This document shows, one piece after another, positions 14,318-58,432 of a stretch of DNA of 64,000 nucleotides (positions are counted from its first letter, which is position 1; every line of letters begins with the position of its first letter). Both the position numbers and the translations under genes were made by a program. Origin of the DNA: Spirochaetota bacterium (lineage in GTDB: Bacteria > Spirochaetota > UBA12135 > COTS27); assembly GCA_965249715.1 (NCBI GenBank), contig CBDFMP010000047.1, forward strand, positions 51,922 through 115,921, in the 5' to 3' direction. Below the pieces are notes generated by a model, which was not told the origin of the DNA, did not search any database, and saw only the letters and a list, made by a program, of their open reading frames with translations.

Positions 14318-15133
14318 TTGTTTGGGGTTTATACGCTGTATCAGTTGGGAGCGGATATGTTGGGTAGTACTGAAAAAAATCGCCAGATTAAAATAATTCG
14401 TATGCAATACGAAGAGCTTTCCACTAAGTGGGGCCATAATGTCAAAGAACTGGTGACACGTTTTGAAAAAAGATTTCAAGAGGCACGTAAGAATAAACAG
14501 GATATGGGAGTCTTTTTTACAGCGGAAAATGAGGCTATTAAGATCTTTGAAGAGCGCTTGCGCGATGGAGCTGATGAAGAGGAGCAAGAGCTGGAAAGGG
14601 AAGCTGAACAAAATTCCCCCGCTACTGGGCATCATGTTTCTACTATTGCTGAATATACGAATTATGAGCGTATTCATATTCATGAAAATGCATCAGCGGA
14701 GATTGAACATTTGTTTGGAGCGATGGTGGACTTCTCCAAGAAGCTTTTGCCTGTTTTGGAAGAGGTGCGTAAGCTTATTCGCGATAAAGCTTATCACAGC
14801 ATGAGTTATGAAATAGAGACTTTATTGCAAGATATCAGTCTTCAGCAGGAAGGGCGGCTGCCGAATGTATTTTCTGTTTATCGGGCAAAAGTTGTGCGCG
14901 CACGTAGCGGTGGAGAAGCTGAACGTGCACGTGCAGAGCCATTTAAGGCTATTTTAAATATTGCTCGTAAAGTCAAACGTTTGGGACGCTGGATTGAAAA
15001 TCATCATAGTAAGCTGCCCGCGTATATGCATGTCACCTACGATGGTGAAGGCCATTCGGCGCGCGAACTGGCAGTGATATCCGATGTGCAGCACATTGTG
15101 CGCAGTTTCGGATTGCAGGATTTTGCAGAATAA
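14318..15133 (+). CDS. hypothetical acidic protein
   Basis: 271-aa ORF directly downstream of rpoC with an Asp/Glu-rich middle segment. No family recognised. Its last ~55 nt seed the first unit of the tandem array that follows. Start could also be the M at 14354. Confidence 0.45.
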   Translation: MFGVYTLYQLGADMLGSTEKNRQIKIIRMQYEELSTKWGHNVKELVTRFEKRFQEARKNKQDMGVFFTAENEAIKIFEERLRDGADEEEQELEREAEQNSPATGHHVSTIAEYTNYERIHIHENASAEIEHLFGAMVDFSKKLLPVLEEVRKLIRDKAYHSMSYEIETLLQDISLQQEGRLPNVFSVYRAKVVRARSGGEAERARAEPFKAILNIARKVKRLGRWIENHHSKLPAYMHVTYDGEGHSARELAVISDVQHIVRSFGLQDFAE

Positions 15134-16245
15134 AAACGTCTAGCTTGGCAGTGCGGTTGTGCTTTGCGTGCTGGTCGCGCTTAGCGGCTGAGCCAGCTTT
15201 TCCAGCATTCGCCAATAAGTGTGCCTCCCACGGCGATGGCAATGACTGCAGGTGCAGCTGGAATATCTGACTATATGCTAAAAAAGATACCAAATCCTAT
15301 ATAAAATATATTCAGCAGGCTAGCGTAAACCATGGCACTGAATAAACTACGCGCGAACAGGAGCCGCAGTAGCGGCACCCAGCGCGCAAAAAGCGCGATG
15401 ATGAGGGTTATCCCTACTGCCTGAATGAGCGTGACAATGGCACAGGCACACAATAAGAGCAATCCCAGATGCAGGCGTTTAGTGGGAACTTTTTGTTAAG
15501 CTGATATCCGATGTGCAGCACATTGTGCGCAGTTTCGGATTGCAGGATTTTGCAGAATAAAAACGTCTAGCTTGGCAGTGCGGTTGTGTTTTGCGTGCTG
15601 GTCGCGCTTAGCGGCTGAGCCAGCGCTTTTCCAGCATTTGCCAATAAGTGTCCCACGGCGATGGCACTGAATAAGCTTACGCGCAAACAGGAGCCACAGT
15701 AGCGGCACCCAGCGCGCAAAAAGCGCGATGATGAGGGTGATCCCTACTGGAATGAGCGTGACAATGGCACAGGCACACAATAAGAGCAATCCCAGATGCA
15801 GGCGTTTAGTGGGAACTTTTCGTTAAGCTGATATCCGATGTGCAGCACATTGTGCGCTTCGGATTGCAGGATTTTGCAGAATAAAAACGTCTAGCTTGGC
15901 AGTGCGGTTGTGTTTTGCGTGCTGGCCGCGCTTAGCGGCTGAGCCAGCTTTTCCAGCATTCGCCAATAAGTGTGCCTCCCACGGCGATGGCAATGACTGC
16001 AGGTGCAGCTGGAATATCTGACCATACGCTAAAAAAGATACCAAATCCTATATAAAATATATTCAGCAGGCTGGCGTAAACCATGGCACTGAATAAACTA
16101 CGCGCGAACAGGAGCGCAGTAGCGGCACCCAGCGCAAAAAGCGCGATGATGAGGGTTATCCCTACTGCCTGAATGAGCGTGACAATGGCACAGGCACACA
16201 ATAAGAGCAACCCCAGATGCAGGCGTTTAGTGGGAACTTTTCTGA
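15077..16245. repeat. complex tandem array of three units (about 427, 327 and 415 bp). Each unit is the last ~55 bp of gene 14318..15133 plus the spacer plus the last ~300 bp of the permease gene (minus strand)
   Basis: Units begin with atatccgatgtgcagcacattgtgcg at 15077, 15504 and 15831. Copies differ by transitions, small indels and a ~100-bp internal deletion in unit 2. Only the last permease copy joins a full gene. The ORF-track pieces 15033..15293, 15271..15462, 15496..15789 and 15823..16044 are these fragments. Confidence 0.85.
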
Positions 16246-16783
16246 GAATGGCATAGTTTCGCTCGATGAAACTTAATTGCAGCTGGCGATAGCTTAAGAG
16301 AATAAAACCGATACTTGCAATGAGGACAGCTGTAATGAGTAACAGCTGAGTGTTGGTAATCAAAAAGAGTTCGCCAAAGAGCAGCGCTGAGAGGCTAGCT
16401 CCCAGCTGTTGTGTTTTTGTCAAAAAAATAATACCGCCGGCAATGCCGCTTGCCCAGAAGAGACTCAGCACAGTGTCTAATTTTGGACTTTCGCGCGCGC
16501 TCAGTACAGCAATGACAACTGCTGCACTCAGTGCTACGCTCAACGCACCCAGGAATGGGAAATTTAATGTGGCGCTCCATGTAGCTGGCAGCTGTTGATT
16601 GAGCAGCAACCCTAGGGCAATGCCGCCAAAACAGGTATGCGCTAAGCTTCCCGCCACATAAAGCAAACGTCGCGCAACAAGCAGTGTTCCCAGGATGCCG
16701 CTGAGTAGCCCCAAGGGGATGGCGCTTAACAGTGCGCGTTGAATAAAAGGTTCATTGAGATAAGCTTGCAGTTGTGTGAACAT
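15932..16783 (-). CDS. znuB: metal ABC transporter permease (ABC-3 / ZnuB-TroC family)
   Basis: 283 aa and polytopic. N-terminus MFTQLQAYLNEPFIQRALLSAIPLGLLSGILGTLLVARRL is typical of ZnuB/MntB permeases. Substrate could be Zn or Mn. Confidence 0.8.
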   Translation of the reverse strand: MFTQLQAYLNEPFIQRALLSAIPLGLLSGILGTLLVARRLLYVAGSLAHTCFGGIALGLLLNQQLPATWSATLNFPFLGALSVALSAAVVIAVLSARESPKLDTVLSLFWASGIAGGIIFLTKTQQLGASLSALLFGELFLITNTQLLLITAVLIASIGFILLSYRQLQLSFIERNYAILRKVPTKRLHLGLLLLCACAIVTLIQAVGITLIIALFALGAATALLFARSLFSAMVYASLLNIFYIGFGIFFSVWSDIPAAPAVIAIAVGGTLIGECWKSWLSR

Positions 16784-18052
16784 GGGAATGATAGAATGTC
16801 AATGTTTGTACAGGGTTGGCTGGATAATGGGCGGTGTTGAGGATGGTCTGCGGTTCTTAATCATGATAATGCGAATGGCTTAACATGGCGATTGTTTGCG
16901 GGTAGAGCTTAGCAGTACATTGTTTGTCAGGTATGCGCTAAGCTTCCCGCCACAGTAAACAAACGTCGCGCAACAAACAGTGTTCCCTGGATACCGCTGA
17001 GCAGCCCCAAGGGAATGGAGCTTAACAGAGTGCGCGTTGAATAAAAGGTTCATTGAGCTAAGCTTGCAAGTGTGCGAACATGGGAATGATAGAATGTCGA
17101 TGGTTGTACAGGATTGGCTGGATGCTGGGCGGCATTGAGGATGGTCTGCGGCTCTTAATCATGATAATGCGAGTGGTTTAACATGGCGATTGTTTGCGGG
17201 TAGAGCTTAGCAGTACATTGTTTGTCAGGTATGCGCTAAGCTTCCCGCCACAGTAAAGCAAACGTCGCGCAACAAACAGTGTTCCCTGGATACCGCTGAG
17301 CAGCCCCAAGGGAATGGAGCTTAACAGAGTGCGCGTTGAATAAAAGGTTCATTGAGATAAGCTTGCAAGTTGTGTGAACATGGGAATGATAGAATGTCAA
17401 TGTTTGTACAGGGTTGGCTGGATGCTGGGCGGCGTTGAGGATGGTCTGCGGCTCTTAATCATGATAATGCGAATGGTTTAACATGGCGATTGTTTGCGGG
17501 TAGAGCTTAGCAGTACATTGTTTGTCAGGTATGCGCTAAGCTTCCCGCCACAGTAAAGCAAACATCGCGCAACAAGCAGTGTTCCCAGGATACCGCTGAG
17601 CAGCCCCAAGGGAATGGAGTTTAACAGAGTGCGCGTTGAATAAAAGGTTCATTGAGCTAAGCTTGCAAGTGTGCGAACATGGGAATGATAGAATGTCGAT
17701 GGTTGTACAGGATTGGCTGGATGCTGGGCGGCATTGAGGATGGTCTGCGGCTCTTAATCATGATAATGCGAATGGTTTAACATGGCGATTGTTTGCGGGT
17801 AGAGCTTAGCAGTACATTGTTTGTCAGGTATGCGCTAAGCTTCCCGCCACAGTAAAGCAAACGTCGCGCAACAAGCAGTGTTCCCAGGATACCGCTGAGC
17901 AGCCCCAAGGGAATGGAGCTTAACAGAGTGCGCGTTGAATAAAAGGTTCATTGAGCTAAGCTTGCAAGTGTGTGAACATGGGGATGATAAAATGTCAATG
18001 TTTGTACAGGGTTGGCTGGATGCTGGGCGGCGTTGAGGATGGTCTGCGGCTC
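16784..18052. repeat. four extra ~300-bp tandem units between znuC and znuB. Each unit is the znuC 3' end plus the intercistronic spacer plus the znuB 5' end
   Basis: The znuC 3'-end marker catgataatgcgaatgg recurs at about 16863, 17163, 17463, 17762 and 18061 (last is genuine). The permease start cat...gaacatgggaatgatagaatgtc recurs at 16783 (genuine) and about 17080, 17380, 17678, 17977. Copies are diverged by SNPs and indels, and several pseudo-starts carry in-frame stops. Confidence 0.85.
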
Positions 18053-18937
18053 TTAATCATGATAATGCGAATGGTTTAACATGGCGATTGTTTGCGGGTA
18101 AAGCTTAGCGAGTGCATTGTTTGTGAACGCTGTTTTGGAAATGGTATGTACGGATTGTTTGACACAGAGCAGCTGATTGGAGAATTTGGGAGCTGCGTTG
18201 GTGTCATGTGAAACAATGAGAATGGTTTTGCCTTCAGCGCGCAGCTCTTGCAAAAGTTTATAAAAATGTGCTTCCGACTCTTCGTCAAGATTGGCAGTGG
18301 GTTCATCGAATAACAGGATGGGGGCATTGCTGATGAGTGCGCGTGCAATAGCGGCACGTTGCCGCTGTCCGGCAGAAAGTGTTATCAGCGGTACCGCAGT
18401 GAGTGCCTCCATTCCCACACGCAGCAAGGCCTTGTGAATACGCTCACGGCGTGCAGGCATGGCGGTGCGGATATTTTGGACAAATTGCCTAACTTGCTGC
18501 TTTAAAGACGGCAGTACAGGCTGAGCACTACGGATAGGGGATGATGGTTGTGAACGCTCAGTTTGTATGACGCCGCCCACACAACCAAGTGCAACATATT
18601 CTCCCAAACAAAGTGGAAAGGGGATGGGGGTGCCATGGCCGTAAGCAGCTGGCTGTTGTAAAACGCCATTGATGTAACGGCTGGGGAGCATGGCGGGTGT
18701 TAGCCCAGCAATATTGATGTTTCCCATTGTGGGATTGAGTTTGCCGCTGATGAGCATGAGGCACGTGGTTTTACCGCCGCCATTGGGGCCCAGTAAGGTA
18801 ACAATTTCACCTGCGGAGATGCTGAAACTAACAGCTTTAAGTGTTGGCTGGATTTGTGTGGGATAACGAAACGTGACCTTGTCGAAACACACTAGGGGCT
18901 TACCTTGCTGAGTGGTGGCGGCGGCGGTGATCGGCAT
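18053..18937 (-). CDS. znuC: metal ABC transporter ATP-binding protein (ZnuC-like)
   Basis: Walker A GPNGGGKT, signature LSAGQRQRAAIARAL, Walker B LLFDEP. Preferred start is MPITAAATTQQGKPLVCFDKV at 18937. The ORF track extends it to 19045, overlapping znuA. Confidence 0.8.
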   Translation of the reverse strand: MPITAAATTQQGKPLVCFDKVTFRYPTQIQPTLKAVSFSISAGEIVTLLGPNGGGKTTCLMLISGKLNPTMGNINIAGLTPAMLPSRYINGVLQQPAAYGHGTPIPFPLCLGEYVALGCVGGVIQTERSQPSSPIRSAQPVLPSLKQQVRQFVQNIRTAMPARRERIHKALLRVGMEALTAVPLITLSAGQRQRAAIARALISNAPILLFDEPTANLDEESEAHFYKLLQELRAEGKTILIVSHDTNAAPKFSNQLLCVKQSVHTISKTAFTNNALAKLYPQTIAMLNHSHYHD

Positions 18938-18992
18938 GGTTTTTTCAGGAGGAGCCGCTGCTGTTGGCAGTAGGCAGTAGGGATGCTGAGCT

Positions 18993-20066
18993 TTAGGGAA
19001 GCTGAAGCTTGGCAAAAGCGGTGAAGATTTTATCAAGTGTGGCAATGCCAGAGGTGCCGGTAGGATTCACTTGTAAATGGCTTAGTGAAGCAGCCACCGT
19101 TGGTGCCAGCTGGCTTTGAAGTCCGCTAAAATATTGGCTGTCATGCGGGGTGGTGATAACAAACTTATGTGTTGCGTGACTAAGAGCTGTGGTGAAACGT
19201 TTTAGCTGGCTGGGTGTTGGGGCAATGTGATCATCCTTGCTGAGTGAAATGACCTTGAGCGCTAACGGGGCATAAACATATTCCAGCTCTATTAATAGGG
19301 GATGAAGCGTGAAGAGTGTTTTTTCCTCAGCGTGGTTTATGGTCTGAACAATAAACTTATCCAGCTTGGCAATGCGTGTTTGATATTCGCTGAGCTTGTT
19401 TTGGTACAGCTGTGCATGAGCGGGCTGTTCAGCACTCAGTGCCTTAGCAACTAGCTCCGCCAGCTGCCTAAGTGAAGAGGGTGCCAACCAAGGATGAAAA
19501 CTGGCTGGAGGTACATTGTTAGCAGCAGCTTGATGGACTTCGTGCTGAGGCAGCTCTGTGGGGGGTTCATGGGTTTGATCATGATTGTTAAGGTTCAAAG
19601 CGTGCGTGTCAACGTGCGTATACTCAGCGTCATGAATAATGGCGTTATTTTGTTCGTTATAAAATGAAACGATCCGTATTTGCGGGTTCAGTGCGCGAAT
19701 TTTGGGCAGCAGTGGTTTTTCCAACTCCAGTCCTACACTTATGTATAAAGCTAAGTGTTTGAACTTTTGAATAGTCTGCGGTTTTAAGTGGAAGAAGTGC
19801 GGATCATCATTGCCATCGCTGAGCGTGATAATTTCTACGCGCTGCGGTGCAGCTTGTTGCGCGTGTTGATACTGCCACTCAGCGGCAATCGCTGCAATAA
19901 TGCTGCCAATAGCAGGGATGGCACAGCCAACCCGAAGTGGTGCAGCACTGAGTGGTGATCTCAGCAATAATACGACTAACAATCCCCAAATTATTAATGG
20001 CAATAATTGTAATTGTGAGGAGCGCAAGGAAAACATTAAATGGTTGAGCTTGTTATGGAACAGCAT
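18993..20066 (-). CDS. znuA: periplasmic metal-binding protein (ZnuA/TroA family)
   Basis: 357 aa with a signal peptide. DPHFFHLKP matches the DPHxWLxP metal-site motif. A His/Glu-rich loop (HDQTHEPPTELPQHEVH) is like the ZnuA zinc loop. Confidence 0.8.
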   Translation of the reverse strand: MLFHNKLNHLMFSLRSSQLQLLPLIIWGLLVVLLLRSPLSAAPLRVGCAIPAIGSIIAAIAAEWQYQHAQQAAPQRVEIITLSDGNDDPHFFHLKPQTIQKFKHLALYISVGLELEKPLLPKIRALNPQIRIVSFYNEQNNAIIHDAEYTHVDTHALNLNNHDQTHEPPTELPQHEVHQAAANNVPPASFHPWLAPSSLRQLAELVAKALSAEQPAHAQLYQNKLSEYQTRIAKLDKFIVQTINHAEEKTLFTLHPLLIELEYVYAPLALKVISLSKDDHIAPTPSQLKRFTTALSHATHKFVITTPHDSQYFSGLQSQLAPTVAASLSHLQVNPTGTSGIATLDKIFTAFAKLQLP

Positions 20067-20110
20067 AGAGTTTTTTTTATAGTTTGTTTACACGCTGCCA
20101 TGCACGAGTA

Positions 20111-20161
20111 TGTTACAGTGTAACACTGAAACTGTCATATCATAACATGTTATGGTGTAAC
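20111..20161. promoter_or_regulatory. cluster of Zur/Fur-family-like palindromic boxes 45-95 bp upstream of znuA
   Basis: TGTTACAgTGTAACA (20111-20125), ATAACATGTTAT (20142-20153) and TGTTATggtGTAAC (about 20148-20161). The half-sites GTTAT/ATAAC resemble the E. coli Zur box TGTTATawtATAACA. Confidence 0.5.
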
Positions 20162-20353
20162 GCGGGAATGATTTTAAGTATTTTTATGATTTTTTCAGTT
20201 ATTGCTCAATGGCAGTAGAATTAAGCGTATTTGTTTACAAAATACTTATGCAATTCTTTGAAATTCCGTTTATTGAAATGGGTAGCTGCTTTTATGGAAA
20301 ATAATTATTCAGTCATTGCATAGTATTGCCGCTAAGTTTTTAATGGGAGTTTC

Positions 20354-21559
20354 GTGGGAATAGTGATAACGCCTGCATTTTTGCTGAGGAATCTTTTATG
20401 TTTGTTTGCCGTTTGGGCAGCAATCGCTTGTTCCAAGCAGGAACCAGCAGCACAGGCGGCTGCAGAGCAGCCAGTGATTACCGTCCAACCGCTTGCAGAA
20501 CCTAAGTCTGCGGATGCAGCAGCGGGCAGCGTGATCAATAGTCTTGACGTCCCGGCAGCTTCAGCAGCAGCTGACGCCAAAGACCCCATTGCCGCCTTGG
20601 AACAGCTGTCGCAATCGCAATCCGCTGCGCGGCCAGCAGCGGCAAATTTCAACAATAAGCTAGTGAATGTGGCAGAGGTGCCGGCACGGGCACGAAGGCT
20701 CTCATCGCAAAAAATACAGCCCGGCAAGTCTGAACAGTCGCAAGCTGCCCGCAGGTCCCCGCTTGCGGAAATAAAAGAACTTTATCGCAAGCAGCAATAT
20801 GTGCAGCTGACGAAAGTGACGTTCACCAGTATGGAATTGCCGCAGCTTTATTATAAAGCAAGCGCTTATTTTCAGTTGGCTAAACAAGCGCCCCGCCGCT
20901 CGCGCAAGCAAGTGGAGTACGTGCGTTATAGTAAACAACTTTACGGACGAATTGCTGAGACCACTCGTGATGCTGAATTAAAAGCGCGCTCTTTGTTATG
21001 GTTGGCTATTTTGCGCTGGCGTTATCCTGCCTGGAGTGAAGATTTGGAAAAACAGCTTGCCTCCTTGTTTTATATTCAGCGTAAACTGAAAGCTACACGG
21101 ATTTATAACGATGCGCTGTTGTACACTGGATTTATTTATCAAAGTCATCAACGTTATAGTAAGGCGTATAGGTATTACAGAAAGTTGGCACAGACATCGG
21201 CGGACGATTGGGTCTATGATGATAATATTCGTAAATTTGTGCAACCAGAACGCGCCTCACGCTGGTATTTGGCGAAGTTGCAAGAGCAGCAGTTAACACA
21301 ATTGCTTGAACCTTCTTCACCCAATCCCGCCACGCCCGTAGCAGCCCCACGCGTTGTTGTTCCAGCTGCTCCACGCGCTGTTCCACAGCCTCCGCCAGCT
21401 GCCGCTGCCAGTGTTCCTTCCAATGTCCCCGTACTCAGTAGTGAAACCGAAACAGCAAATTATCAGCCATACCGAGAGCCTGCGGTTTTACCTGAAAATG
21501 ACGTGGAATTTAATGATCGTGACAATGCTGCAACAACAGACAGTTTTATATTTGATTAA
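20354..21559 (+). CDS. hypothetical lipoprotein with TPR-like helical region and Pro-rich C-terminus
   Basis: 401 aa. Signal peptide ending in the lipobox-like AIAC-S. Ala/Gln-rich linker. Tyr-rich helical repeats (YRYYRKLAQ...). PAAPRVVVPAAPRAVPQPPPAAAAS tail. Confidence 0.55.
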   Translation: MGIVITPAFLLRNLLCLFAVWAAIACSKQEPAAQAAAEQPVITVQPLAEPKSADAAAGSVINSLDVPAASAAADAKDPIAALEQLSQSQSAARPAAANFNNKLVNVAEVPARARRLSSQKIQPGKSEQSQAARRSPLAEIKELYRKQQYVQLTKVTFTSMELPQLYYKASAYFQLAKQAPRRSRKQVEYVRYSKQLYGRIAETTRDAELKARSLLWLAILRWRYPAWSEDLEKQLASLFYIQRKLKATRIYNDALLYTGFIYQSHQRYSKAYRYYRKLAQTSADDWVYDDNIRKFVQPERASRWYLAKLQEQQLTQLLEPSSPNPATPVAAPRVVVPAAPRAVPQPPPAAAASVPSNVPVLSSETETANYQPYREPAVLPENDVEFNDRDNAATTDSFIFD

Positions 21560-22426: not shown

Positions 22427-23242
22427 GTGAATTCACTGGTATCAGCATTAACGCGTATTGGGCAGTTAGAACGCCAATTTCAACAGTACTTCAGTAAAAC
22501 TGCGCCGCGCAATACGTTTACTGAAAGCAATGCTGCCTCAGCGCAGACCCCTGCTACTCCTACGGCAGCTTTATCACCATTTGCTACGTCGTTTGCCGCC
22601 ACTGATATTCTGCCGCAAAATTTATCCTCAGTGAATTTGGTTGATGGTCTAACAAATGGTCTAACCACCCAGTCTCCACTTGGCAATTTTAAGGAATTAC
22701 TTAACGCCAAGCTGCAATTAGCATCAGCGTCACCAACAACTGGCGGGCAGCAAACTGCAGTGAAGCAGCTTAAAACAAGCCCCATACAACAGGCGGCTCA
22801 GGTGCCTGTTGTACAAACAAGACAGTTAACGACTTTTCCTTTTCAGGCACAAATTACAGCTGCTGCAGAAGCCAATGGGTTGCCTGTCGCTTTGTTTCGC
22901 TCACTTGTAGCCGCTGAGTCGAATTTTAATCCACTGGCTGTATCGGCAAAAGGCGCTATGGGGCTGACTCAGCTTATGCCGCAAACGGCAGTCGCGCTTG
23001 GTGTCACGGAACCTTATGATGTGGAAGCCAATTTGCAGGGCGGCGCGCGCTACTTGCGAATGCTTTTGGATAAGTACGGCGGCGATTACGCTAAGGCGCT
23101 AGCGGCTTACAATGCCGGTGAGAAGGCTGTAGCACGTGCCGATGAGCTGAGTGGGGTCAGTGTGCCACCTTATGCTGAGACTAATCAATATGTGAAGCGT
23201 GTTTTAACAAGTTATTTAAAATATAGCGGGGTGAGTTTATGA
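22427..23242 (+). CDS. lytic transglycosylase (SLT domain) protein
   Basis: C-terminal AESNFNPLAVSAKGAMGLTQLMPQTA...AYNAG is the SLT catalytic core (ES...GLMQ...AYNAG). The N-terminal 130 aa are low-complexity. Possibly flagellum-associated, given its neighbours. Confidence 0.7.
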   Translation: MNSLVSALTRIGQLERQFQQYFSKTAPRNTFTESNAASAQTPATPTAALSPFATSFAATDILPQNLSSVNLVDGLTNGLTTQSPLGNFKELLNAKLQLASASPTTGGQQTAVKQLKTSPIQQAAQVPVVQTRQLTTFPFQAQITAAAEANGLPVALFRSLVAAESNFNPLAVSAKGAMGLTQLMPQTAVALGVTEPYDVEANLQGGARYLRMLLDKYGGDYAKALAAYNAGEKAVARADELSGVSVPPYAETNQYVKRVLTSYLKYSGVSL

Positions 23243-23862
23243 ATTTGGAACGTATTTTACGTATTGGCATATTACTGGTTGCAATTGGGTTAGGAGGATT
23301 GGTATTACTTTTTTTTATTGAGCAACAGCTGTTTATAACGGCTTATTCAAGCTTGAAAAGCAATTTGCCTGCCTTTTTGGTGAGTCAACCCAAACAAGAG
23401 CCCAGTCAGAGTGCTGAGCGTGCACGCGAATTGCAACTCTTAGCGGAAGAAGAACGTGCTAAGCTGCAAGAAAGCTTTTTTTTGCGTGAAAGCGGGCTTG
23501 CTGCAAAAGAGGCTATGCTGTTAGTTCTTGAACAGGAATTGCAAACTGAGCGTACCAATTTAATAACTGAACGTGAAGAGCTTCTGAAAATACGCGAACG
23601 TGCGGATACATTGGCGGCTGAAGCAGCCAGCTATGATAAAAAAATACAGGAGCTGGCGGAACGTTTTTATAATATGCCGCCACAAGCTGCTGCACCACGG
23701 ATTGTGGCATTGGAAGACGATATTCTTATTATCGACGTGCTTGCAGCCATGGATCTGGTCGCTGCTGAAAATGATCAACTTTCAATTGTGCCATTTCTGC
23801 TTTCATTAATGCCTGCAGAAGTTTCGGCGCGCATCATGAAAAAAGCGACAGTTGAGTTGTAA
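23239..23862 (+). CDS. single-pass membrane coiled-coil protein (FlbB/MotE-like, MgtE_N-like C-terminus)
   Basis: 207 aa. N-terminal TM helix, charged coiled coil, C-terminal IVALEDDILIIDVLAAMD...LMPAEVSARIMKK. Start overlaps the stop of the upstream gene by 4 nt. Confidence 0.4.
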   Translation: MNLERILRIGILLVAIGLGGLVLLFFIEQQLFITAYSSLKSNLPAFLVSQPKQEPSQSAERARELQLLAEEERAKLQESFFLRESGLAAKEAMLLVLEQELQTERTNLITEREELLKIRERADTLAAEAASYDKKIQELAERFYNMPPQAAAPRIVALEDDILIIDVLAAMDLVAAENDQLSIVPFLLSLMPAEVSARIMKKATVEL

Positions 23863-24813
23863 GCTGATTGTTCCCTAACCGTAAGCTTCAGGCAGCGGTT
23901 AATCACTAAAAGCTATAATCCTATAAACGCAGCAGCTTGTTTTAGCGGTTATGCTAGAATTAGGTGTTTGTTCGGCATAGTTTATTATTAAATGACCGAA
24001 CAGGTGTGACTAAATTAAACTTGTGGCAAAAAACTATCAAACACTCAGCTTTCAATTGTGCCATCTCTGCTTTCATTAATGCCTGCAGAAGTTTCGGCGC
24101 GCATCATGAAAAAAGCGACAGTTGAGTTGTAAGCTGATTGTTCCCTAACCGTAAGCTTCAGGCAGCGGTTAATCACTAAAAGCTATAATCCTATAAACGC
24201 AGCAGCTTGTTTTAGCGGTTATGCTAGAATTAGGTGTTTGTCCGGTATAGTTTATTGTTAAAGGATCGAATAGGTGTGACTAAATTAAACTTGTGGCAAA
24301 AAACTATCAAACACTCAGCTTTCAATTGTGCCATCTCTGCTTTCATTAATGCCTGCAGAAGTTTCGGCGCGCATCATGAAAAAAGCGACAGTTGAGTTGT
24401 AAGCTGATTGTTTCCTAACCGTAAGCTCCAGGCAGCGGTTAATCACTAAAAATTATAATCCTATAAACGCAGCAGCTTGTTTTAGCGGTTATGCTAGAAT
24501 TAGGTGTTTGTCCGGCATGGTTTATTATTAAATGACCGAATAGGTGTGACTAAATTAAACTTGTGGCAAAAAACTATCAAACACTCAGCTTTCAATTGTG
24601 CCATCTCTGCTTTCATTAATGCCTGCAGAAGTTTCGGCGCGCATCATGAAAAAAGCGACAGTTGAGTTGTAAGCTGATTGTTCCCTAACCGTAAGCTCCA
24701 GGCAGCGGTTAATCACTAAAAACTATAATCCTATAAACGCAGCAGCTTGTTTTAGCGGTTATGCTAGAATTAGGTGTTTGTCCGGCAGTTTATTGTTAAA
24801 GGATCGAATAGGT
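23863..24813. repeat. three extra ~270-bp tandem units between the FlbB-like gene and the AlkD-like gene
   Basis: Unit = internal fragment of the downstream gene (cognate at 24952-24990) fused to the last ~70 bp of the upstream gene, plus the spacer, plus the first ~40 bp of the downstream gene. The marker ctaaattaaacttgtggcaaaaaactatc recurs at about 24010, 24281 and 24551. The genuine junction is at 24811. Confidence 0.85.
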
Positions 24814-25545
24814 GTGACTAAAGCAGCGGAAATAACAAAAGCGTTATTACGTTATCAGAATAAGGTGAAATTAGCCTTTTTCCCGAGATATTTTAAAACA
24901 GGTAAAGGCGAATACGCTGAAGGTGATGAGTTTCTTGGCGTTACCGTGCCCAATATTAAACTTGTGGCAAAAAATTATCAAACACTCAGTTTTCCAGAGC
25001 TTAAGGAAGTTTTAGCGTCACCTAAACACGAGGTTCGTCTATTGGGCGCCCATGTCCTGGTTGCGCAGTTTGCGCGCGCGCGTACGCGTGCAGAACAAAC
25101 TGCCGTTTATCGTTTTTATTTGCAAAATTTGACAGGAATTAATCATTGGGATATTGTGGATGCCAGCACGCATAAGCTCATTGGTGTTTATGTGTTGTCG
25201 CTTACAGCGGCTGAACGCGATGCCGTCCTGGTGCCGCTTGCGGAACATTGTAATGTATGGCGCAGACGTGTGGCTTTGGTAGCAATGTATCGTTTGATCA
25301 AGGAACGCGAACTGGTTTATGTCAGCAAATTTCTCACACGTTTTGTTGCAGATGATCATCAGCTTATTCATAAAGGTTTGGGCTGGATGTTGCGCGAACT
25401 GGGTAAATATGCTCCAGAACGACTTAGTCGTTTTTTACATAAGTACCATCGCCGCTTAGCAGCGGTGACCATTTGTTACGCCACAGAGAAAATGGCGCGC
25501 TCAGAACGTGCGCTTTATTATAAACGCAAATCAAAATCAGGTTAA
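24778..25545 (+). CDS. DNA alkylation repair protein (AlkD/AlkC-like HEAT-repeat family)
   Basis: 255 aa. FFPRYFKTGKGEYAEGDEFLGVTVP...HEVRLLGAHVLV...INHWDIVD matches the DNA_alkylation family pattern. The ORF-track start is a TTG at 24778; an alternative GTG at 24814 follows aagga. Confidence 0.7.
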   Translation: MSGSLLLKDRIGVTKAAEITKALLRYQNKVKLAFFPRYFKTGKGEYAEGDEFLGVTVPNIKLVAKNYQTLSFPELKEVLASPKHEVRLLGAHVLVAQFARARTRAEQTAVYRFYLQNLTGINHWDIVDASTHKLIGVYVLSLTAAERDAVLVPLAEHCNVWRRRVALVAMYRLIKERELVYVSKFLTRFVADDHQLIHKGLGWMLRELGKYAPERLSRFLHKYHRRLAAVTICYATEKMARSERALYYKRKSKSG

Positions 25546-31052: not shown

Positions 31053-31898
31053 ATGACAGACGCAGCTGATGATGGAACAAATGTCCCGCTTGTCCCGCTG
31101 CCAAGTACTTTGCGCCGGCAGCTTGAGCAGCTGGCAGCTGAGCTCCGCGCGTGTACTGGAGGGCGTGTACTTTTTATAACAGGCGCTGGTGTTTCGGCAG
31201 AATCGGGTTTGCCCACTTATCGCGGCACGGGCGGACTTTACAATCAGACTGTTACAGCAGCTGGGCTTCCTATTGAAACCGTGCTTTCTGGAACGGTTAT
31301 GCAAACACAACCTGCGCTGACTTGGAAATATTTACAGGCAATGGAACAGGCTGCGCGCGGAAAACAACCCAATGCAGCACATATTGCCATTGCGCAGTTT
31401 GAAGCGTTTTTTACAACCATTGTTCTGACGCAGAATATTGACGGGCTGCATACTCAGGCTGGTTCAGCTGCGGTTATTGAAATTCATGGCAGCCTTTACC
31501 GCTTGCGTTGTACGGCTGCTGCATGTCCATGGGAAGCGACGGTTGCCAATTATGCGCACTTAGCGCCGCTGCCGCATTGCCCACGTTGTGATGCACTTAT
31601 GCGTCCCTGTGTGGTTTTATTTGGTGAAATGCTTCCCGCAGCTGCGCTGGAACAGCTGGAGCAGGCGCTGGCGGAGCCTTTTGCAGCTGTTTTTATTGTG
31701 GGAACGACGGCTGTATTTCCTTATATTCGTGCACCGCTACTTGCCGCACAACAAGCCGATATTTTAACGGTTGAAATTAATCCAACTCCCACTGAGCTTT
31801 CCGCTGTATGCAAGTACAGTTTGCGAGCGCAAGCAGGAGCCGTCCTCAGTGCGCTTCATGCAATGCTTGCGGCGGGGGAAGAACAGCATGAAAAGTAA
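31053..31898 (+). CDS. cobB: NAD-dependent protein deacylase (sirtuin, CobB-like)
   Basis: 281 aa. GAGVSAESGLPTYRG, TQNIDGLH, catalytic HG, and Zn-binding CTAAAC...CPRCD pairs. Confidence 0.85.
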   Translation: MTDAADDGTNVPLVPLPSTLRRQLEQLAAELRACTGGRVLFITGAGVSAESGLPTYRGTGGLYNQTVTAAGLPIETVLSGTVMQTQPALTWKYLQAMEQAARGKQPNAAHIAIAQFEAFFTTIVLTQNIDGLHTQAGSAAVIEIHGSLYRLRCTAAACPWEATVANYAHLAPLPHCPRCDALMRPCVVLFGEMLPAAALEQLEQALAEPFAAVFIVGTTAVFPYIRAPLLAAQQADILTVEINPTPTELSAVCKYSLRAQAGAVLSALHAMLAAGEEQHEK

Positions 31899-32329
31899 AA
31901 AGCGGCAGCGAACGTTTACACCCTGCACGCGCTGTTCAACTTAGCTTGGCAATACTTGTTTGAGCGTGTTGAGCAGCTCCTTATTCGCGTTGTTATGCGC
32001 TTATGCGCCCTGTGTGGTTTTATTTGGTGAATGCTTCGCAGCTGCGCTTCATGCAATGCTTGCGGCGGGGGGGAAGGACAGCATGAAAAGTAAAAAGCGG
32101 CTGCGAACGTTTACACCCCGCGCGCGCTGTTCAACTTAGCTTGGCAGCAAGCACTTGTTTGAGCGTGTTGAGCAGCTCCTTATCCGCGTTGTTATGCGCT
32201 TAAGGCGTCCCTGTGTGGTTTTAACTTTGGTAGAACTGCTTCGCGCAGCTGCGCTGCAACAGCAGGAGCCGTCATCAGTGCGCTTCATGCAATGCTTGCG
32301 GCAGCGAACGTTTACATCCCGCGCGCTGT
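31899..32329. repeat. two extra ~195-bp tandem units between the convergent sirtuin and GT9 genes
   Basis: Each unit contains the sirtuin 3' end (gcgcttcatgcaatgcttgcggc), an internal sirtuin fragment (cognate at about 31585-31640, CDALMRPCVVLFGEMLP) and the GT9 3' end. The marker cttagcttggca recurs at about 31941 and 32136. The genuine copy is at 32331. Confidence 0.8.
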
Positions 32330-33532
32330 TCAACTTAGCTTGGCAGCAAGCACCTGTTTGAGCGTGTTGAGCAGCTCCTTATTTTGGTATTGTTTCATGC
32401 ACTGAATGTCATTGGGACAGTTTTTATTCAGACACCTATACGATGTGCGAATGGGCGCTTTTTTTATGTAAGGACAATCATAAGCTGCCATGAGCGCAGC
32501 ACTGTGCCTGCTGCGGGCAGTGGCTGCTAGTGCTTGAGCATAAACAGGACTTTGCCGTTCTCTGTTGGTGGGCCCAAAGCAGGTAATAACGGCTTTGCCC
32601 ATTAGCTCGGCAATATAGGCTGGCCCGCTGTCTGCTGCAATGACAAGCTGGGCAAGGCCGATGAGCGCAAACAATTCGCTCAGTGTGGTGGGCGGTGCAA
32701 GGATGATTTTTTGCGGATAGCTGCGCTGGACAGCCTGTGCCTGCGCAGCGTGTGCCTTGTGGGCACTGAGGATAAGCGGACTTTGGGTATGCGCATAAGT
32801 GGCATTGATGATGAGAGCCAGCAGCTCAGTGCCCAGGTCACGTGTATAAAAGGTGCTCCATGGGGCAAGGACAATGACACGTTTGAGGCCTGCTTGTTTG
32901 ATGAACTGGCGCATATGTTTGAGTGCTGCTGCGGCAAACTGAAAGCGAATGAGTGCATTCTGGAGCGCAGGCACTTCTCCTGCTGCTGCTGCAGCGGGTA
33001 CGCTTGCTGGGGTGTGCGGGGTTGTTGCTGGGGCTAGGCTGTGGTGCAGGGAGCTATGGATGCCAAGTGGTTTCAGCAACTCAAGATTTTTATCAATAAT
33101 GTTTAGCGCCTGCCCGCGCACGCGTGTACTGTACCACCAGTGACTGCCTTCACGGCTTTCTGCGGCACTAAAACCAATGTGCTTAACACCGCGCATGAGC
33201 CGCGCAATGATCGCCGATTTTAAAAGTCCCTGCGGATCAATGATGGCGTCATAATAACGGGCACGCAGACGATGTAAACAGCGTTCGCGTTTGAAGTGGC
33301 TGAGACTGCGGAAGCTACTTCGCAATGTGACTTTTTGTGGCAGCGGGATGCTGATGATTTCATCGACAGCACTAAAATGCGCCACCACCTCAGCAAATGC
33401 CTCAGCGACTACCCAGGTGATAAATAGCTGCTCGCCGCGCTCCCGATGATAGCTTTCCAGACGACTGAGCAGGATACTGCTGTGGAGGATATCGCCCATA
33501 GAAGAAAGGCGGACGATTGCGTAACGGATCAT
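32330..33532 (-). CDS. glycosyltransferase family 9 (ADP-heptose:LPS heptosyltransferase-like)
   Basis: 400 aa. N-terminal IVRLSSMGDILH is the hallmark GT9 motif (compare WaaC/WaaF). Confidence 0.8.
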   Translation of the reverse strand: MIRYAIVRLSSMGDILHSSILLSRLESYHRERGEQLFITWVVAEAFAEVVAHFSAVDEIISIPLPQKVTLRSSFRSLSHFKRERCLHRLRARYYDAIIDPQGLLKSAIIARLMRGVKHIGFSAAESREGSHWWYSTRVRGQALNIIDKNLELLKPLGIHSSLHHSLAPATTPHTPASVPAAAAAGEVPALQNALIRFQFAAAALKHMRQFIKQAGLKRVIVLAPWSTFYTRDLGTELLALIINATYAHTQSPLILSAHKAHAAQAQAVQRSYPQKIILAPPTTLSELFALIGLAQLVIAADSGPAYIAELMGKAVITCFGPTNRERQSPVYAQALAATARSRHSAALMAAYDCPYIKKAPIRTSYRCLNKNCPNDIQCMKQYQNKELLNTLKQVLAAKLS

Positions 33533-37467: not shown

Positions 37468-37487
37468 AGTATGACAGAGGGATGCGC

Positions 37488-37612
37488 TTAGTGAAGTGAG
37501 CTTAGTGAAGTGAGCTTAGTGAAGTGAGCTTAGTGGAGTGAGCTTAGTGAAGTGAGCTTAGTGGAGTGGGCTTAGTGAGTGGGCCTGGTTAGTGAGCTTG
37601 GTGGTGGGGGGG
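37488..37612. repeat. about seven tandem 14-bp units (gcttagtgaagtga) degenerating into a G9 homopolymer
   Basis: The tract lies between the yejF stop (37616) and the hydrolase start (37467), within ~100 bp upstream of the hydrolase gene. Confidence 0.85.
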
Positions 37613-41485: not shown

Positions 41486-41578
41486 CGTGATGCACTGATA
41501 CGCTTGCAGGATTATGCGTGCTGAGCCGCTGGTTTATACTGGGATGCAAGAGGGCTAAACTGACTGATGTAAGCCATT

Positions 41579-41720
41579 GGCAGTTGGCGCAGTTGGCAGT
41601 TGGCAGTTGGCAGTTGGCAGTTGGCAGTTGGCAGTTGGCAGTTGGCAGTTGGCAGTTGGCAGTTGGCAGTTGGCAGTTGGCAGTTGGCAGTTGGCAGTTG
41701 GCAGTTGGCAGTTGGCAGTG
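41579..41720. repeat. heptanucleotide microsatellite (GGCAGTT)n, about 20 units, one variant unit
   Basis: Near-perfect array in the 266-bp spacer between yejA and yejB. Confidence 0.95.
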
Positions 41721-57000: not shown

Positions 57001-57445
57001 CAGCTTTTTTATGGGAACCATTAGTGCTGATAGCGGTACAGTTGGCGGTGTCGTGGGTTTTGTGACCGATACCACGTCCACTATCACCAACTCTTATGCG
57101 GCGGCAATTGTAACGGGTATTCCTGATACTAGCTATGGATTGGTGCCCACCAGCGTTACGGTCAACCATAGCTACTACAATAGCACATTGCACACAGGCG
57201 CAGCCGACAGTGCTGAGGGAACAGTCGCGCAAAGCCATGACGTGCTGCGATACCCCAGGGGCAGTAGAGGCATTTATGCGAACTGGGATGAAGCCAGTTG
57301 GGATTTCGGCACTGACGATCAGTACCCCATGCTGAGAGGATTGCCACTTACGGCTTCCGAGCAGTGCGGAGTTGCCGATGCTGCGCTTACCAGTGTGACG
57401 TTTAACTGTGGAACGGGTACGGGCGATACTGGTTACGATGATTAA
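54092..57445 (+). CDS. giant surface lipoprotein with an N-terminal Cys-x-x-Pro-Pro-Cys module and ~13 tandem GLUG-like 29-aa repeats
   Basis: 1117 aa. Lipobox LAFTAC-S. N-terminal module CSNPPCTDAE...IPDQEGA is paralogous to modules in 58617..63817. Repeats have consensus N-x-V-T-N-G-x-I-T-A-x-N-x-N-A-G-G-I-V-G-Y-x-Y-S. Ends ...NCGTGTGDTGYDD. Confidence 0.7.
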   Translation: MKITDFISLKSALLLPLAFTACSVADDASIRTLTFEEMLEPAITLTDANGEEFFGASVNIEFNDDTTGESTDGTIFVNGFTNVCSNPPCTDAELQEPIGRLTITGMSDTFTLAEDAASNVIDIPDQEGAASISGNLGNIVITRTSDKALRTYAVIVQYSGTLVTEIVDNAGGFVNVISPAMAPMASATLGYQATTTAVWDEEVLVVTDMVNLPGDTAMGTVSVTASELPAGYYVMPYTYTDPAGTKAVALMGTLTIAEGDENTLSVAYENQASYDNLRIELTEAPDLAITPQDLIISVTNTLNNDIVLDAGHFVINYNHFTVTITDATIFHNLNGAELSLSSGSLSLSGTENSAFDIDAANITTVFTDPIGTEAITTNLNTFSVTKDAISIDYSLYLTFASTYNFELDSEVIADMETGVSAPFVIAACDNPTSSIFTIATDGTTNYFANVSGRVNYYYNSAIDANNTNTIVLTADDGSSLDFTGAIAVQKCDSFAGGDGSAGNPWQIDNDMQLDLMSRLINNDDAATATYSDYGDDAYILTANIDMSIPEAPWAEGSLHPNANTNGFIPIGKSVNPIGLSVSHQSNSFKGQLNCEANNTRYAIANLYINNTNDTAAENTEGVFIGLFSVLTNGAVITNCTLENASITGYQIVGGIAGYAYSSNNENISIGSNIVANSSITANSSRVGSIVGVIYSVQNSSIVISSNAVTNGNVSTGNSYAGGIIGASTSSGTSTNTISGNTVTDGSITADNDNAGGITGYVASSGGNTIVSMNTVTGGSVTVNDDNAGGIVGYIHSSQDANSTISGNTVANGNITASNNFVGGIAGYMYSGERGGGTLSNNVVTNGTISVSFYDAGGIAGVMYSTSFGSNALNDNVVTNSSITADNTAGGIVGDVYSLEDGSNIISTNNISGGSITANISNAGGIVGFMYSENASKSNVINAAFAATTITASNGNAGGVVGYILQGGITNSFFMGTISADSGTVGGVVGFVTDTTSTITNSYAAAIVTGIPDTSYGLVPTSVTVNHSYYNSTLHTGAADSAEGTVAQSHDVLRYPRGSRGIYANWDEASWDFGTDDQYPMLRGLPLTASEQCGVADAALTSVTFNCGTGTGDTGYDD

Positions 57446-58432
57446 TACCCAACGTACATAACCCTTGCTTTTGCGGGGACGCGGGGCATAGTGGGGAAGG
57501 CTTGCCATGCTCCGCCTGTTAATGTTTTTAATTGCCGTTGCCCATAAAATCAGCGGCGGCGGCTTTTTCTTCCAGCAGCTCACGGCGGGTGGCGTTCAAC
57601 TTCTTCTGAGCAAGGGTGTCATGGGCACTGGCAGCGGATGAAGAGCCGCGCGCCTTGAATGAGCGTTGCGCCGCCGTTGCTGAACATTGTCGATAAACTC
57701 GCCGCGCAGCCAGCTTTCGTTGTCAATGACAGTCGTGACGGGTTTCGTGTCAATGGTGCCGGTGCTATTGGCAAACTATTGGCAAAATCGAAAAATTGGG
57801 TGCTGGAATGCCAGTAGCTGGGATTTCGGCGCTAATGACCAGTACCCCATGCTGAGAGGACTGCTGCTTACAGCTTCAGAGCAATGCCAAGCCGCGGATG
57901 CTGCGCTTACCAGTGTGACACTTAACTGTGGAACAGGTACGGGCAATACTGGCTACGATGAGTAAGGCACACTAAAACTCACCGCGCCGCTTGCGGGAAC
58001 GCGGGGCATAGTGGGGAAGGCTTGCCATGCTCCGCCTGTTAATGTTTTTAATTGCCGTTGCCCATAAAATCAGCGGCGGCGGCTTTTTCTTCCAGCAGCT
58101 CACGGCGGGTGGCGTTCAACTTCTTCTGAGCAAGGGTGTCATGGGCACTGGCAGCGGATGAAGAGCCGCGCGCCTTGAATGAGCGTTGCGCCGCCGTTGC
58201 TGAACATTGTCGATAAACTCGCCGCGCAGCCAGCTTTCGTTGTCAATGACAGTCGTGACGGGTTTCGTGTCAATGGTGCCAGTGCTATTGGCAAACTATT
58301 GGCAAAATCGAAAAATTGGGTGCTGGAATGCCAGTAGCTGGGATTTCGGCACTGACGATCAGTACCCCATGCTGAGAGGATTGCCACTTACGGCTTCCGA
58401 GCAGTGCGGAATTTCCAATAGCTAAGCTTGTA
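57446..58432. repeat. two ~520-bp tandem units, each a ~290-bp segment of unknown origin plus a copy of the last ~55 codons of the lipoprotein gene. The array ends in a 26-bp copy of the mnmG 3' end
   Basis: C-terminal copies at 57800-57965 and 58320-58405; genuine at 57280-57445. tccaatagctaagcttgtacaagttc occurs at 53801-53826 and at 58407-58432. ORF-track 57687..57965 and 58207..58425 are the copied fragments. Confidence 0.75.

Follow-up and report, generated by a model that had tools for sequence, protein, structure and literature searches.

Repeats in the genome of Ehrlichia ruminantium, as described by Collins et al. in PNAS in 2005, reportedly caused the duplication and truncation of some genes. 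Long-period repeats of both E. ruminantium and Wolbachia vary in copy number and have been put down to slippage with unequal exchange, and the Wolbachia variable-number tandem repeats (VNTRs) have been explained by slippage together with concerted evolution (PMC3287509). The long-period tandem repeats of these two bacteria are the closest known counterparts of the element described here, an array inside a metal-uptake operon of a Spirochaetota bacterium. The operon lies in a 64,000-nt stretch of contig CBDFMP010000047.1 (assembly GCA_965249715.1, positions 51,922 to 115,921 of the forward strand), hereafter the window, in whose coordinates all positions are given. It encodes a ZnuA-family binding protein, a ZnuC-like ATPase and a ZnuB-like permease, and between the last two genes the junction itself is repeated five times (the znu array). 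The explanation favoured here, to which we give a probability of about 0.72, is that the array arose by a lineage-specific, multi-step tandem duplication of the ATPase/permease junction. On this view duplication and amplification are a tendency of the whole genome, and the array is one of its by-products, tolerated because both genes stay intact.

A five-unit array at the ATPase/permease junction

Tandem Repeats Finder (TRF) delimits an array at 16632-18124 with a period of 299, 5.0 copies, 95% matches, 0% indels and a score of 2702, and the ladder of offsets from a BLAST of the 64-kb window against itself (296, 594, 894 and 1193) agrees with it. An earlier model-made annotation of the locus (the sequence-only reading) had described the junction segment as present in five tandem copies with a period of ~300 bp, as is found. 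Its partition of the unit into ~115, ~75 and ~110 bp was inaccurate: in gene orientation, each unit comprises the last 71-72 nt of the ATPase gene including its TAA stop, a 73-nt spacer and the first 152-155 nt of the permease gene. The unit sequence is confined to its own locus within the window and is composed wholly of local gene ends and spacer. The class of dispersed intercistronic repeats (REP/BIME/MITE-like) was considered and rejected, the unit being purely local sequence with no Rfam match.

Intact gene ends are found only at the edges of the array. The authentic 3' end of the ATPase gene (18053-18124) is the tail of unit 1 and the authentic 5' end of the permease gene (16632-16783) is the head of unit 5. 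Authenticity was judged by alignment to two syntenic relatives, COTS27 and L002: the ATPase C-terminus that unit 1 encodes, ...LYPQTIAMLNHSHYHD, aligns with both orthologues, as does the permease N-terminus that unit 5 encodes, MFTQLQAYLNEPFIQRALL.... From ATPase stop to permease start the gap amounts to 1269 nt (16784-18052), compared with the 73-nt spacer of each unit, and the coordinates reported before for the znuC-znuB gap of ~1.3 kb agree with it to the nucleotide. The four extra permease starts with short dead frames that had been described are likewise present: the four decoy ATGs open reading frames of 7-10 codons, each closed by a stop (MFTHLQA, MFAHLQA, MFTQLASLSQ and again MFAHLQA). 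The context upstream of these ATGs nearly equals that of the authentic permease start, so that initiation at the decoys is probably as feasible as at the authentic ATG. Many genes of the window, znuA and the permease gene included, have no recognisable Shine-Dalgarno sequence, and some ribosomal-protein and RNA-polymerase genes (rplL, rpoB) have strong ones. A mini open reading frame (ORF), MLNHSHYHD, is intact in each ATPase pseudo-tail.

A history recorded in the units

No two of the five units are the same: in the unit alignment, pairs differ at 6-24 places per ~299 nt (92-98% identity). Relative to the authentic ATPase tail, the pseudo-tails of units 2-5 have in common a deletion of 1 nt and two substitutions; set against the authentic permease head, the pseudo-heads of units 1-4 have in common insertions of 2 nt and 1 nt and seven substitutions. 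A TAT-to-TAG nonsense change is found in three of the four pseudo-heads. The joint at which head meets tail, CATACCTG/ACAAACAATG, is identical at all four internal places, and neither microhomology nor filler was found at the znu breakpoint. The shared derived indels imply a single, already decayed joint as the ancestor of every internal pseudo-head/pseudo-tail joint. Read from the units, the order of events was one old duplication, decay by frameshift and later amplification, a pattern that is just what unequal crossing-over between the copies yields. Five further substitutions are shared by units 2 and 4 and two others by units 3 and 4, a mosaic that points to several rounds of amplification or exchange. 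The 2-8% divergence between units indicates a slow turnover, unlike that of contingency loci. Variable columns number 5 of 72 in the tail, 10 of 73 in the spacer and 17 of 156 in the head; the numbers are small. The spacer, which alone in the unit could hold a regulatory signal, is thus its most variable segment, conserved no more than the remnants of dead genes, and gives no sign of selection on it.

A scenario in three steps is consistent with these observations. In the first step, suggested by the anatomy of the unit, an illegitimate tandem duplication would have copied a segment of ~300 bp that begins 72 nt short of the ATPase stop and ends 152 nt beyond the start of the permease gene. With the junction inside the duplicated segment, the ATPase gene stays whole through the first copy and the permease gene through the last. 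In the second step, recorded in the units, the superfluous permease head and the superfluous ATPase tail that meet at the joint decayed by frameshifts and a nonsense codon. In the third, shown by the shared derived indels, the decayed joint was amplified to four internal joints, presumably by unequal homologous recombination or replication slippage, and exchange between units left the mosaic of shared substitutions.

Could the array instead be a product of assembly, with a single or double junction inflated, for example, by stringing co-existing strain variants of a metagenome into a tandem series? The source contig, of 229 kb, is probably metagenomic and tandem repeats are classic trouble spots, the COTS27 assembly itself having had 23 gaps at tandem repeats (PMC7444263). 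Simple collapse or expansion errors would, however, give identical copies, and five distinct units with nested shared indels fit descent instead. Both genes are exactly intact at the array edges, four other arrays in the window follow the same logic at 84 to 98% identity, and the finished genome of the nearest relative, COTS27, is also rich in repeats. Taken together, these points make an artefact very unlikely.

Arrays of the same architecture at other gene junctions

At least four more arrays in the 64 kb (A, C, D and E in Table 1) have the same architecture as the znu array: a gene end, a spacer and the end of the neighbouring gene, with intact ends at the outer edges only. They lie between unrelated genes, both co-directional and convergent. 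Because this architecture recurs at unrelated junctions, the znu array is not a device specific to znu. The permease gene is even flanked by junction arrays on both sides, with array A at its 3' end and the znu array at its 5' end. A decayed ancestor is also seen in array C, where the pseudo-heads all share a 133-nt deletion and a 2-nt insertion older than the amplification, and where the breakpoint carries an imperfect microhomology of ~9 nt (TCAGnTTTC). A 30-mer at its joints, considered as filler DNA, corresponds to 24956-24985 of the downstream gene; this ruled out filler and revealed the shared 133-nt deletion. Array D, at 84-90% identity over 31581-32383, is older.

In a rough ORF-based gene map of the window (43 genes, 86% coding, median intergenic gap 85 nt), the gaps holding the five arrays account for 52% of the non-coding DNA and are the only ones longer than 400 nt besides a 770-nt gap that bears tRNA. 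On the same map, were five units of these sizes placed at random, all of them would span a gene end with a probability of ~0.003. Why should this be so? Most simply, selection acts as a filter: a duplication wholly within a gene would damage that gene and be lost, while one spanning a gene end would leave an intact copy of each neighbour and be tolerated. Under such a filter, every gene-junction array in the window would be expected to straddle a gene end, as they do. The underlying tendency would be genome-wide, tandem duplications of ~200-500 bp being made and amplified throughout a host-associated, repeat-rich spirochete lineage.

Several side observations concern these and other repeats of the window. 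An 80-nt piece from inside the Sir2-like gene (31581-31662) has also been copied into array D, and array E yields an ORF of 92 aa (57687-57965) resembling the C-terminus of the product of gene 54092-57445. Array F (59356-63051, period 1541), weighed as a sixth case, was instead classed as domain repeats within the gene of a large surface protein. The giant repetitive gene in question (58617-63817) holds ~2.4 copies of ~1541-nt internal repeats at 84% identity and is split into the overlapping ORFs 58617-60746 and 60542-63817, a split that could reflect a frameshift, a pseudogene or a sequencing error. Short-period intergenic repeats are found at 41577-41719 (TTGGCAG x 20, 97% match) and at 37486-37603 (a 14-nt unit x 8.6). 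In each case the flanking genes are co-directional and on the minus strand, and the repeats look like satellites of the COTS27 type.

Relatives and repeat load

RpoC places the window in Spirochaetota, and its nearest sequenced relative is COTS27 (AP019861.1; RpoC 82% identical), followed by L002 (an ENA contig; 70%) and L003 (67%). COTS27 is a subcuticular spirochete symbiont whose host is the crown-of-thorns starfish, with a genome of 2.68 Mb, 1650 genes and no transposons (PMC7444263). Both COTS27 and L002 keep the order rpoC, hypothetical gene, permease, ATPase, ZnuA, and in both the ATPase-permease junction is single copy, with 151 nt in COTS27 and 181 nt in L002; L003 has no znu operon beside rpoC and is uninformative for the junction. 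Comparison of the znuC-znuB spacing in relatives, which the sequence-only reading had proposed, had two outcomes. The single-copy junctions in both relatives make the amplification specific to the lineage of the window. With a spacer of 73 nt in the unit, and of 151 and 181 nt in the relatives, tight stop-start coupling was absent ancestrally. The proposal that the array uncouples znuB translation from that of znuC is therefore unsupported, there having been no such coupling to lose.

The permease and ATPase are 43-46% identical to their COTS27 orthologues, and the arrays, 84-98% identical internally, must be much younger than that split. A closer genome or strain was sought and none was found: an exact 25-mer from the unit had 0 matches in genome and metagenome collections, peptide words of the permease gave no confirmed match among the GTDB representative genomes, and a permease profile retrieved only matches of 27-29% identity from metagenomes. 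The protein database holds the exact permease once, its next relative there being 34% identical.

Tandem-repeat load was measured with TRF at the settings of the published survey (2,7,7; score 50; period up to 500). It comes to 4.5% of the window, a value in which arrays A, E and F (period >500) are uncounted, 12% of a 24-kb locus of COTS27 and 0.12% in L003; the published loads of E. ruminantium and Escherichia coli are 6.3% and 0.38% (PMC3287509). The repeats of the COTS27 locus have periods of 11-106 nt, apart from one 96/193/289-nt array, and are purely intergenic, without recognisable gene fragments. Short tandem repeats occur in nearly every spacer of the COTS27 znu operon, and a gene-free stretch of 2.6 kb between znuA and the next gene (AP019861.1, locus positions 18856-21480) consists almost entirely of tandem satellites (periods 16, 20/43/106, 22 and 96/193/289). 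Proneness to repeats is common to the clade; the gene-junction form is documented here only.

Possible functions of the array

The sequence-only reading had proposed that change of copy number could make the array an expression rheostat for metal uptake. In an adaptive form of this idea, copy number would tune permease against ATPase output through decoy starts, transcript length or polarity, and selection would maintain the array. The operon does look otherwise intact and metal-regulated, with palindromes upstream of znuA, and the decoy ATGs retain almost the upstream context of the real start. Variation in copy number is known for long-period repeats of other bacteria that live with hosts (PMC3287509). 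The mRNA of the array contains 30.7% C and 18.0% G (C/G = 1.71) and its longest ATG-initiated ORF has 57 aa, so that array RNA is C-rich and predicted to be essentially untranslated. Untranslated RNA rich in C and poor in G favours Rho-dependent termination. Such RNA could make polarity dependent on copy number, and any effect of the array would most likely be a lower read-through into the permease gene.

Searches for dedicated elements nevertheless returned none in the array. The folded unit shows no RNA structure (z = 0.17, with 110 of 200 shuffles folding as well), no terminator-like site was found in the znu array on the gene strand, and at Rfam gathering thresholds nothing matched the array; two tRNAs were the only matches in the window, and sub-threshold matches around the operon are at chance level. 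A leader-peptide or upstream-ORF attenuator was considered and rejected: the decoy peptides (MFTHLQA, MFAHLQA, MFTQLASLSQ) differ from one another and are remnants of the permease start, with neither fold nor terminator-like site to accompany them. Beyond these negatives, four unrelated junctions in 64 kb share the architecture, including convergent gene ends at which the logic of decoy starts fails; compared with the fragments of dead genes, the spacer shows no conservation; the 2-8% divergence of the units speaks for slow turnover; and the ancestral spacer already precluded tight coupling. A rheostat maintained by selection is accordingly quite improbable. The structural description given by the sequence-only reading holds and its functional interpretation is unsupported, so that it is partly supported as a whole.

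Alternatively, each unit might hold in its spacer or ATPase tail a promoter for the permease gene, five copies of which would raise permease transcription independently of znuA and znuC. A promoter-like match, TCGCCA-17-TATCAT, is present at the ATPase tail in every unit, and spacers of 73-181 nt in the clade are long enough to accommodate a promoter. The match is weak, however (9/12), ~8 such sites being expected by chance in a 6.4-kb shuffle, and it recurs in all units because it is part of what was duplicated. A transcript begun in an upstream copy would still include the untranslated stretch with its decoys ahead of the permease gene, and arrays at convergent gene ends would go unexplained. 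Multiplication of a promoter is thus highly improbable as the reason for the array.

The tolerated by-product favoured here has modest consequences for the operon. The polycistronic RNA would gain ~1.2 kb that is C-rich, unstructured and essentially untranslated and carries four decoy starts. The effect is probably neutral, or a mild drop in permease expression through Rho-type polarity, and not that of an evolved regulator.

The znu operon and its upstream region

The genes of the operon all lie on the minus strand and were assigned to families by Pfam (Table 1). The binding protein, the ATPase and the permease expected of an ABC-3 metal-uptake operon (ZnuABC, cluster A-I) are all present, and ATPase and permease are full length by alignment to the relatives, which confirms the view that the operon is otherwise intact. 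The permease aligns end to end with its orthologues (46% identity to COTS27, 25% to L002). In the ATPase, the motifs GPNGGGKTT (Walker A), LSAGQRQR (signature) and LLFDEPTANLD (Walker B) are kept in the orthologues. Its true start is probably M37, at 18937, since the first 36 codons of the ORF overlap znuA and have no counterpart in the relatives. An insertion of ~34 residues, VIQTERSQPSSPIRSAQPVLPSLKQQVRQFVQNI, lies inside the ABC domain (residues ~159-192 of the 330-aa ORF), is missing from both relatives and splits the Pfam ABC_tran match into two stretches. The His-rich C-terminal motif of the ATPase (18053-18080) is conserved, reading NHSHYH here, NHSHYK in COTS27 and THTHKK in L002, and may be a metal-sensing tail.

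Two palindromes lie 45-90 nt upstream of the znuA ATG, a perfect 7-1-7 repeat, TGTTACA-C-TGTAACA, and ATAACATGTTAT; at the level of sequence, the palindromes reported before are real. They resemble the 7-1-7 boxes of the Fur family and are compatible with a candidate Fur-family (Zur-like) operator.

Table 1. Coordinates of the znu array, its landmarks, the sister arrays and the operon features (window positions)
Feature	Position	Strand	Description
znu array	16632..18124	-	Five head-to-tail units of 296-300 bp each, from TRF, unit alignment and landmark positions
Unit joints of the znu array	17825/17824, 17526/17525, 17226/17225, 16928/16927		
TAA stops of ATPase tails	18053 (authentic), 17754, 17455, 17155, 16857		
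Permease ATGs	17979, 17680, 17381, 17081, 16783 (authentic)		
Example of a decayed internal segment	17680..17979	-	Decoy ATG 17979 (MFTHLQA, stop), joint CATACCTG/ACAAACAATG at 17825/17824, pseudo-tail with 1-nt deletion, TAA 17754, next decoy ATG 17680
Array A	15075..16242	.	Last 59 nt of convergent gene 14318-15133, spacer and last ~310 nt of permease gene; ~3 copies with internal deletions
Array C	23775..24822	+	88-nt tail of gene 23239-23862, 137-nt spacer and head of gene 24778-25545; 3.9 copies, period 270
Array D	31847..32383	.	52-nt tail of Sir2-like gene, spacer and 53-nt tail of convergent gene 32330-33532; ~2.8 copies, period ~195, 84-88% identity
Array E	57296..58423	+	Last 150 nt of large surface-protein gene 54092-57445 and ~370 nt of downstream spacer; ~2.2 copies, period 520
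ZnuA-family periplasmic metal-binding protein gene, first in operon	18993..20066	-	PF01297, E = 3.6e-24, 86 bits against a cutoff of 29
ABC ATPase gene (ZnuC-like), intact	18053..18937 (ORF as listed to 19045)	-	PF00005, E = 1.8e-27
ABC-3 permease gene (ZnuB-like), intact, full length	15932..16783	-	PF00950, E = 8.9e-46, residues 12-268
Candidate operator and promoter upstream of znuA	20110..20161	-	Both palindromes overlap the promoter-like site ATGACA-17-TAACAT; sequence level only

Weighing the explanation and its meaning

Some considerations count against a tolerated by-product of a genome-wide tendency. The word genome-wide is extrapolated from five arrays in a 64-kb part of one genome, a single assembled sequence gives both the copy number and its presumed stability, and the argument for a selection filter depends on a gene map drawn roughly from ORFs. 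The same pattern would also come from a mechanism directed at gene ends, for example stalling where transcription or replication units meet. Neutrality is deduced from the decay of the sequence, and a regulatory side-effect on permease dosage may exist. The breakpoint of the znu array has no microhomology that would point to a mechanism for the first duplication, and the satellites of COTS27 contain no recognisable gene fragments, the gene-junction form being seen so far in this organism only.

A bolder version can be formulated, in which the lineage has an unusual and still-active mutational regime that favours tandem duplication and amplification at gene boundaries. Such a regime would be the main driver of intergenic expansion in COTS27-like symbionts, and arrays inside operons, as between znuC and znuB, would modulate the expression of distal genes through polarity, heritably and in dependence on copy number. 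The regime might stem from the loss or alteration of a repair or recombination function, or from breaks at the ends of transcription units. In this strong form the proposal is unlikely.

If the znu array is a tolerated by-product, little changes for the znu operon itself: its transporter genes are intact, and debris that is tolerated is the best description of the array. Taken individually it is ordinary; the notable part is the density and uniform logic of such arrays in a little-studied symbiont lineage. Five junction-spanning arrays, in each of which duplication, decay and amplification have left the same record, hold about half of the non-coding DNA of an otherwise compact 64 kb, a natural example of the growth of intergenic DNA by local duplication under a filter that demands one intact copy of each gene. 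This suggests an origin for the low coding density and the repeat load of COTS27-like spirochetes of marine invertebrates, a point left unanalysed in the COTS27 genome paper. In practical terms, such arrays create spurious short ORFs, false N-terminal extensions in annotation and broken assemblies and, if polymorphic, would make good markers for strain typing by multilocus VNTR analysis (MLVA) of these unculturable symbionts.

Comparison with known repeat systems

Contingency loci, such as the CTCTT repeats of Neisseria opa, resemble the znu array in that repeat copy number could in principle alter the expression of an adjacent gene (PMC4534519). Their units are 1-10 nt long and near-identical and lie in a reading frame or a promoter spacer, where a change of one unit switches expression. 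The znu array, considered as a contingency locus or phase-variable repeat, was rejected for this class: its diverged units of ~299 nt (296-300 nt, 92-98% identical) lie between two cistrons and are not short, near-identical units in frame or in a promoter spacer.

The satellites of COTS27 are the nearest in descent. There too the locus is repeat-rich, with the same znu gene order and a low gene density. Their periods are short, however, they contain no gene fragments, and the ATPase-permease junction beside them is single copy.

The znu array appears, by analogy, to belong to an already known class of long-period tandem repeats. It has the structure of a long-period intergenic VNTR, with a period of 299, 5.0 copies and intact flanking genes, and its surroundings are repeat-rich as in that class, the 64 kb sampled holding 4.5% tandem repeats plus the arrays of period >500 bp. 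VNTR-141 and VNTR-105 of Wolbachia are likewise intergenic head-to-tail arrays between single-copy genes, with periods of 105-141 bp and 1-7 copies (PMC3287509). Their periods are 98-99% identical and contain hairpins thought to trigger slippage, whereas the znu units are 92-98% identical and unstructured and consist of gene fragments plus native spacer inside an operon.

E. ruminantium, whose long-period repeats and tandem duplications are the subject of Collins et al. (2005, PNAS) and Frutos et al. (2006, J Bacteriol), is likewise host-associated with a high repeat load, its periods averaging 139 bp, reaching 471 bp and matching internally at ~92% (PMC3287509, Table 4). Its repeats are largely non-coding, inflate the intergenic regions and are attributed to slipped-strand mispairing (PMC3287509). 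It belongs to the Alphaproteobacteria and not to Spirochaetota, and variability in copy number is the defining observation of its repeats, whereas copy number here is known from one sequence only. Differently to E. ruminantium, every long-period array examined here is built of the recognisable ends of its flanking genes, with a history in which decay preceded amplification.

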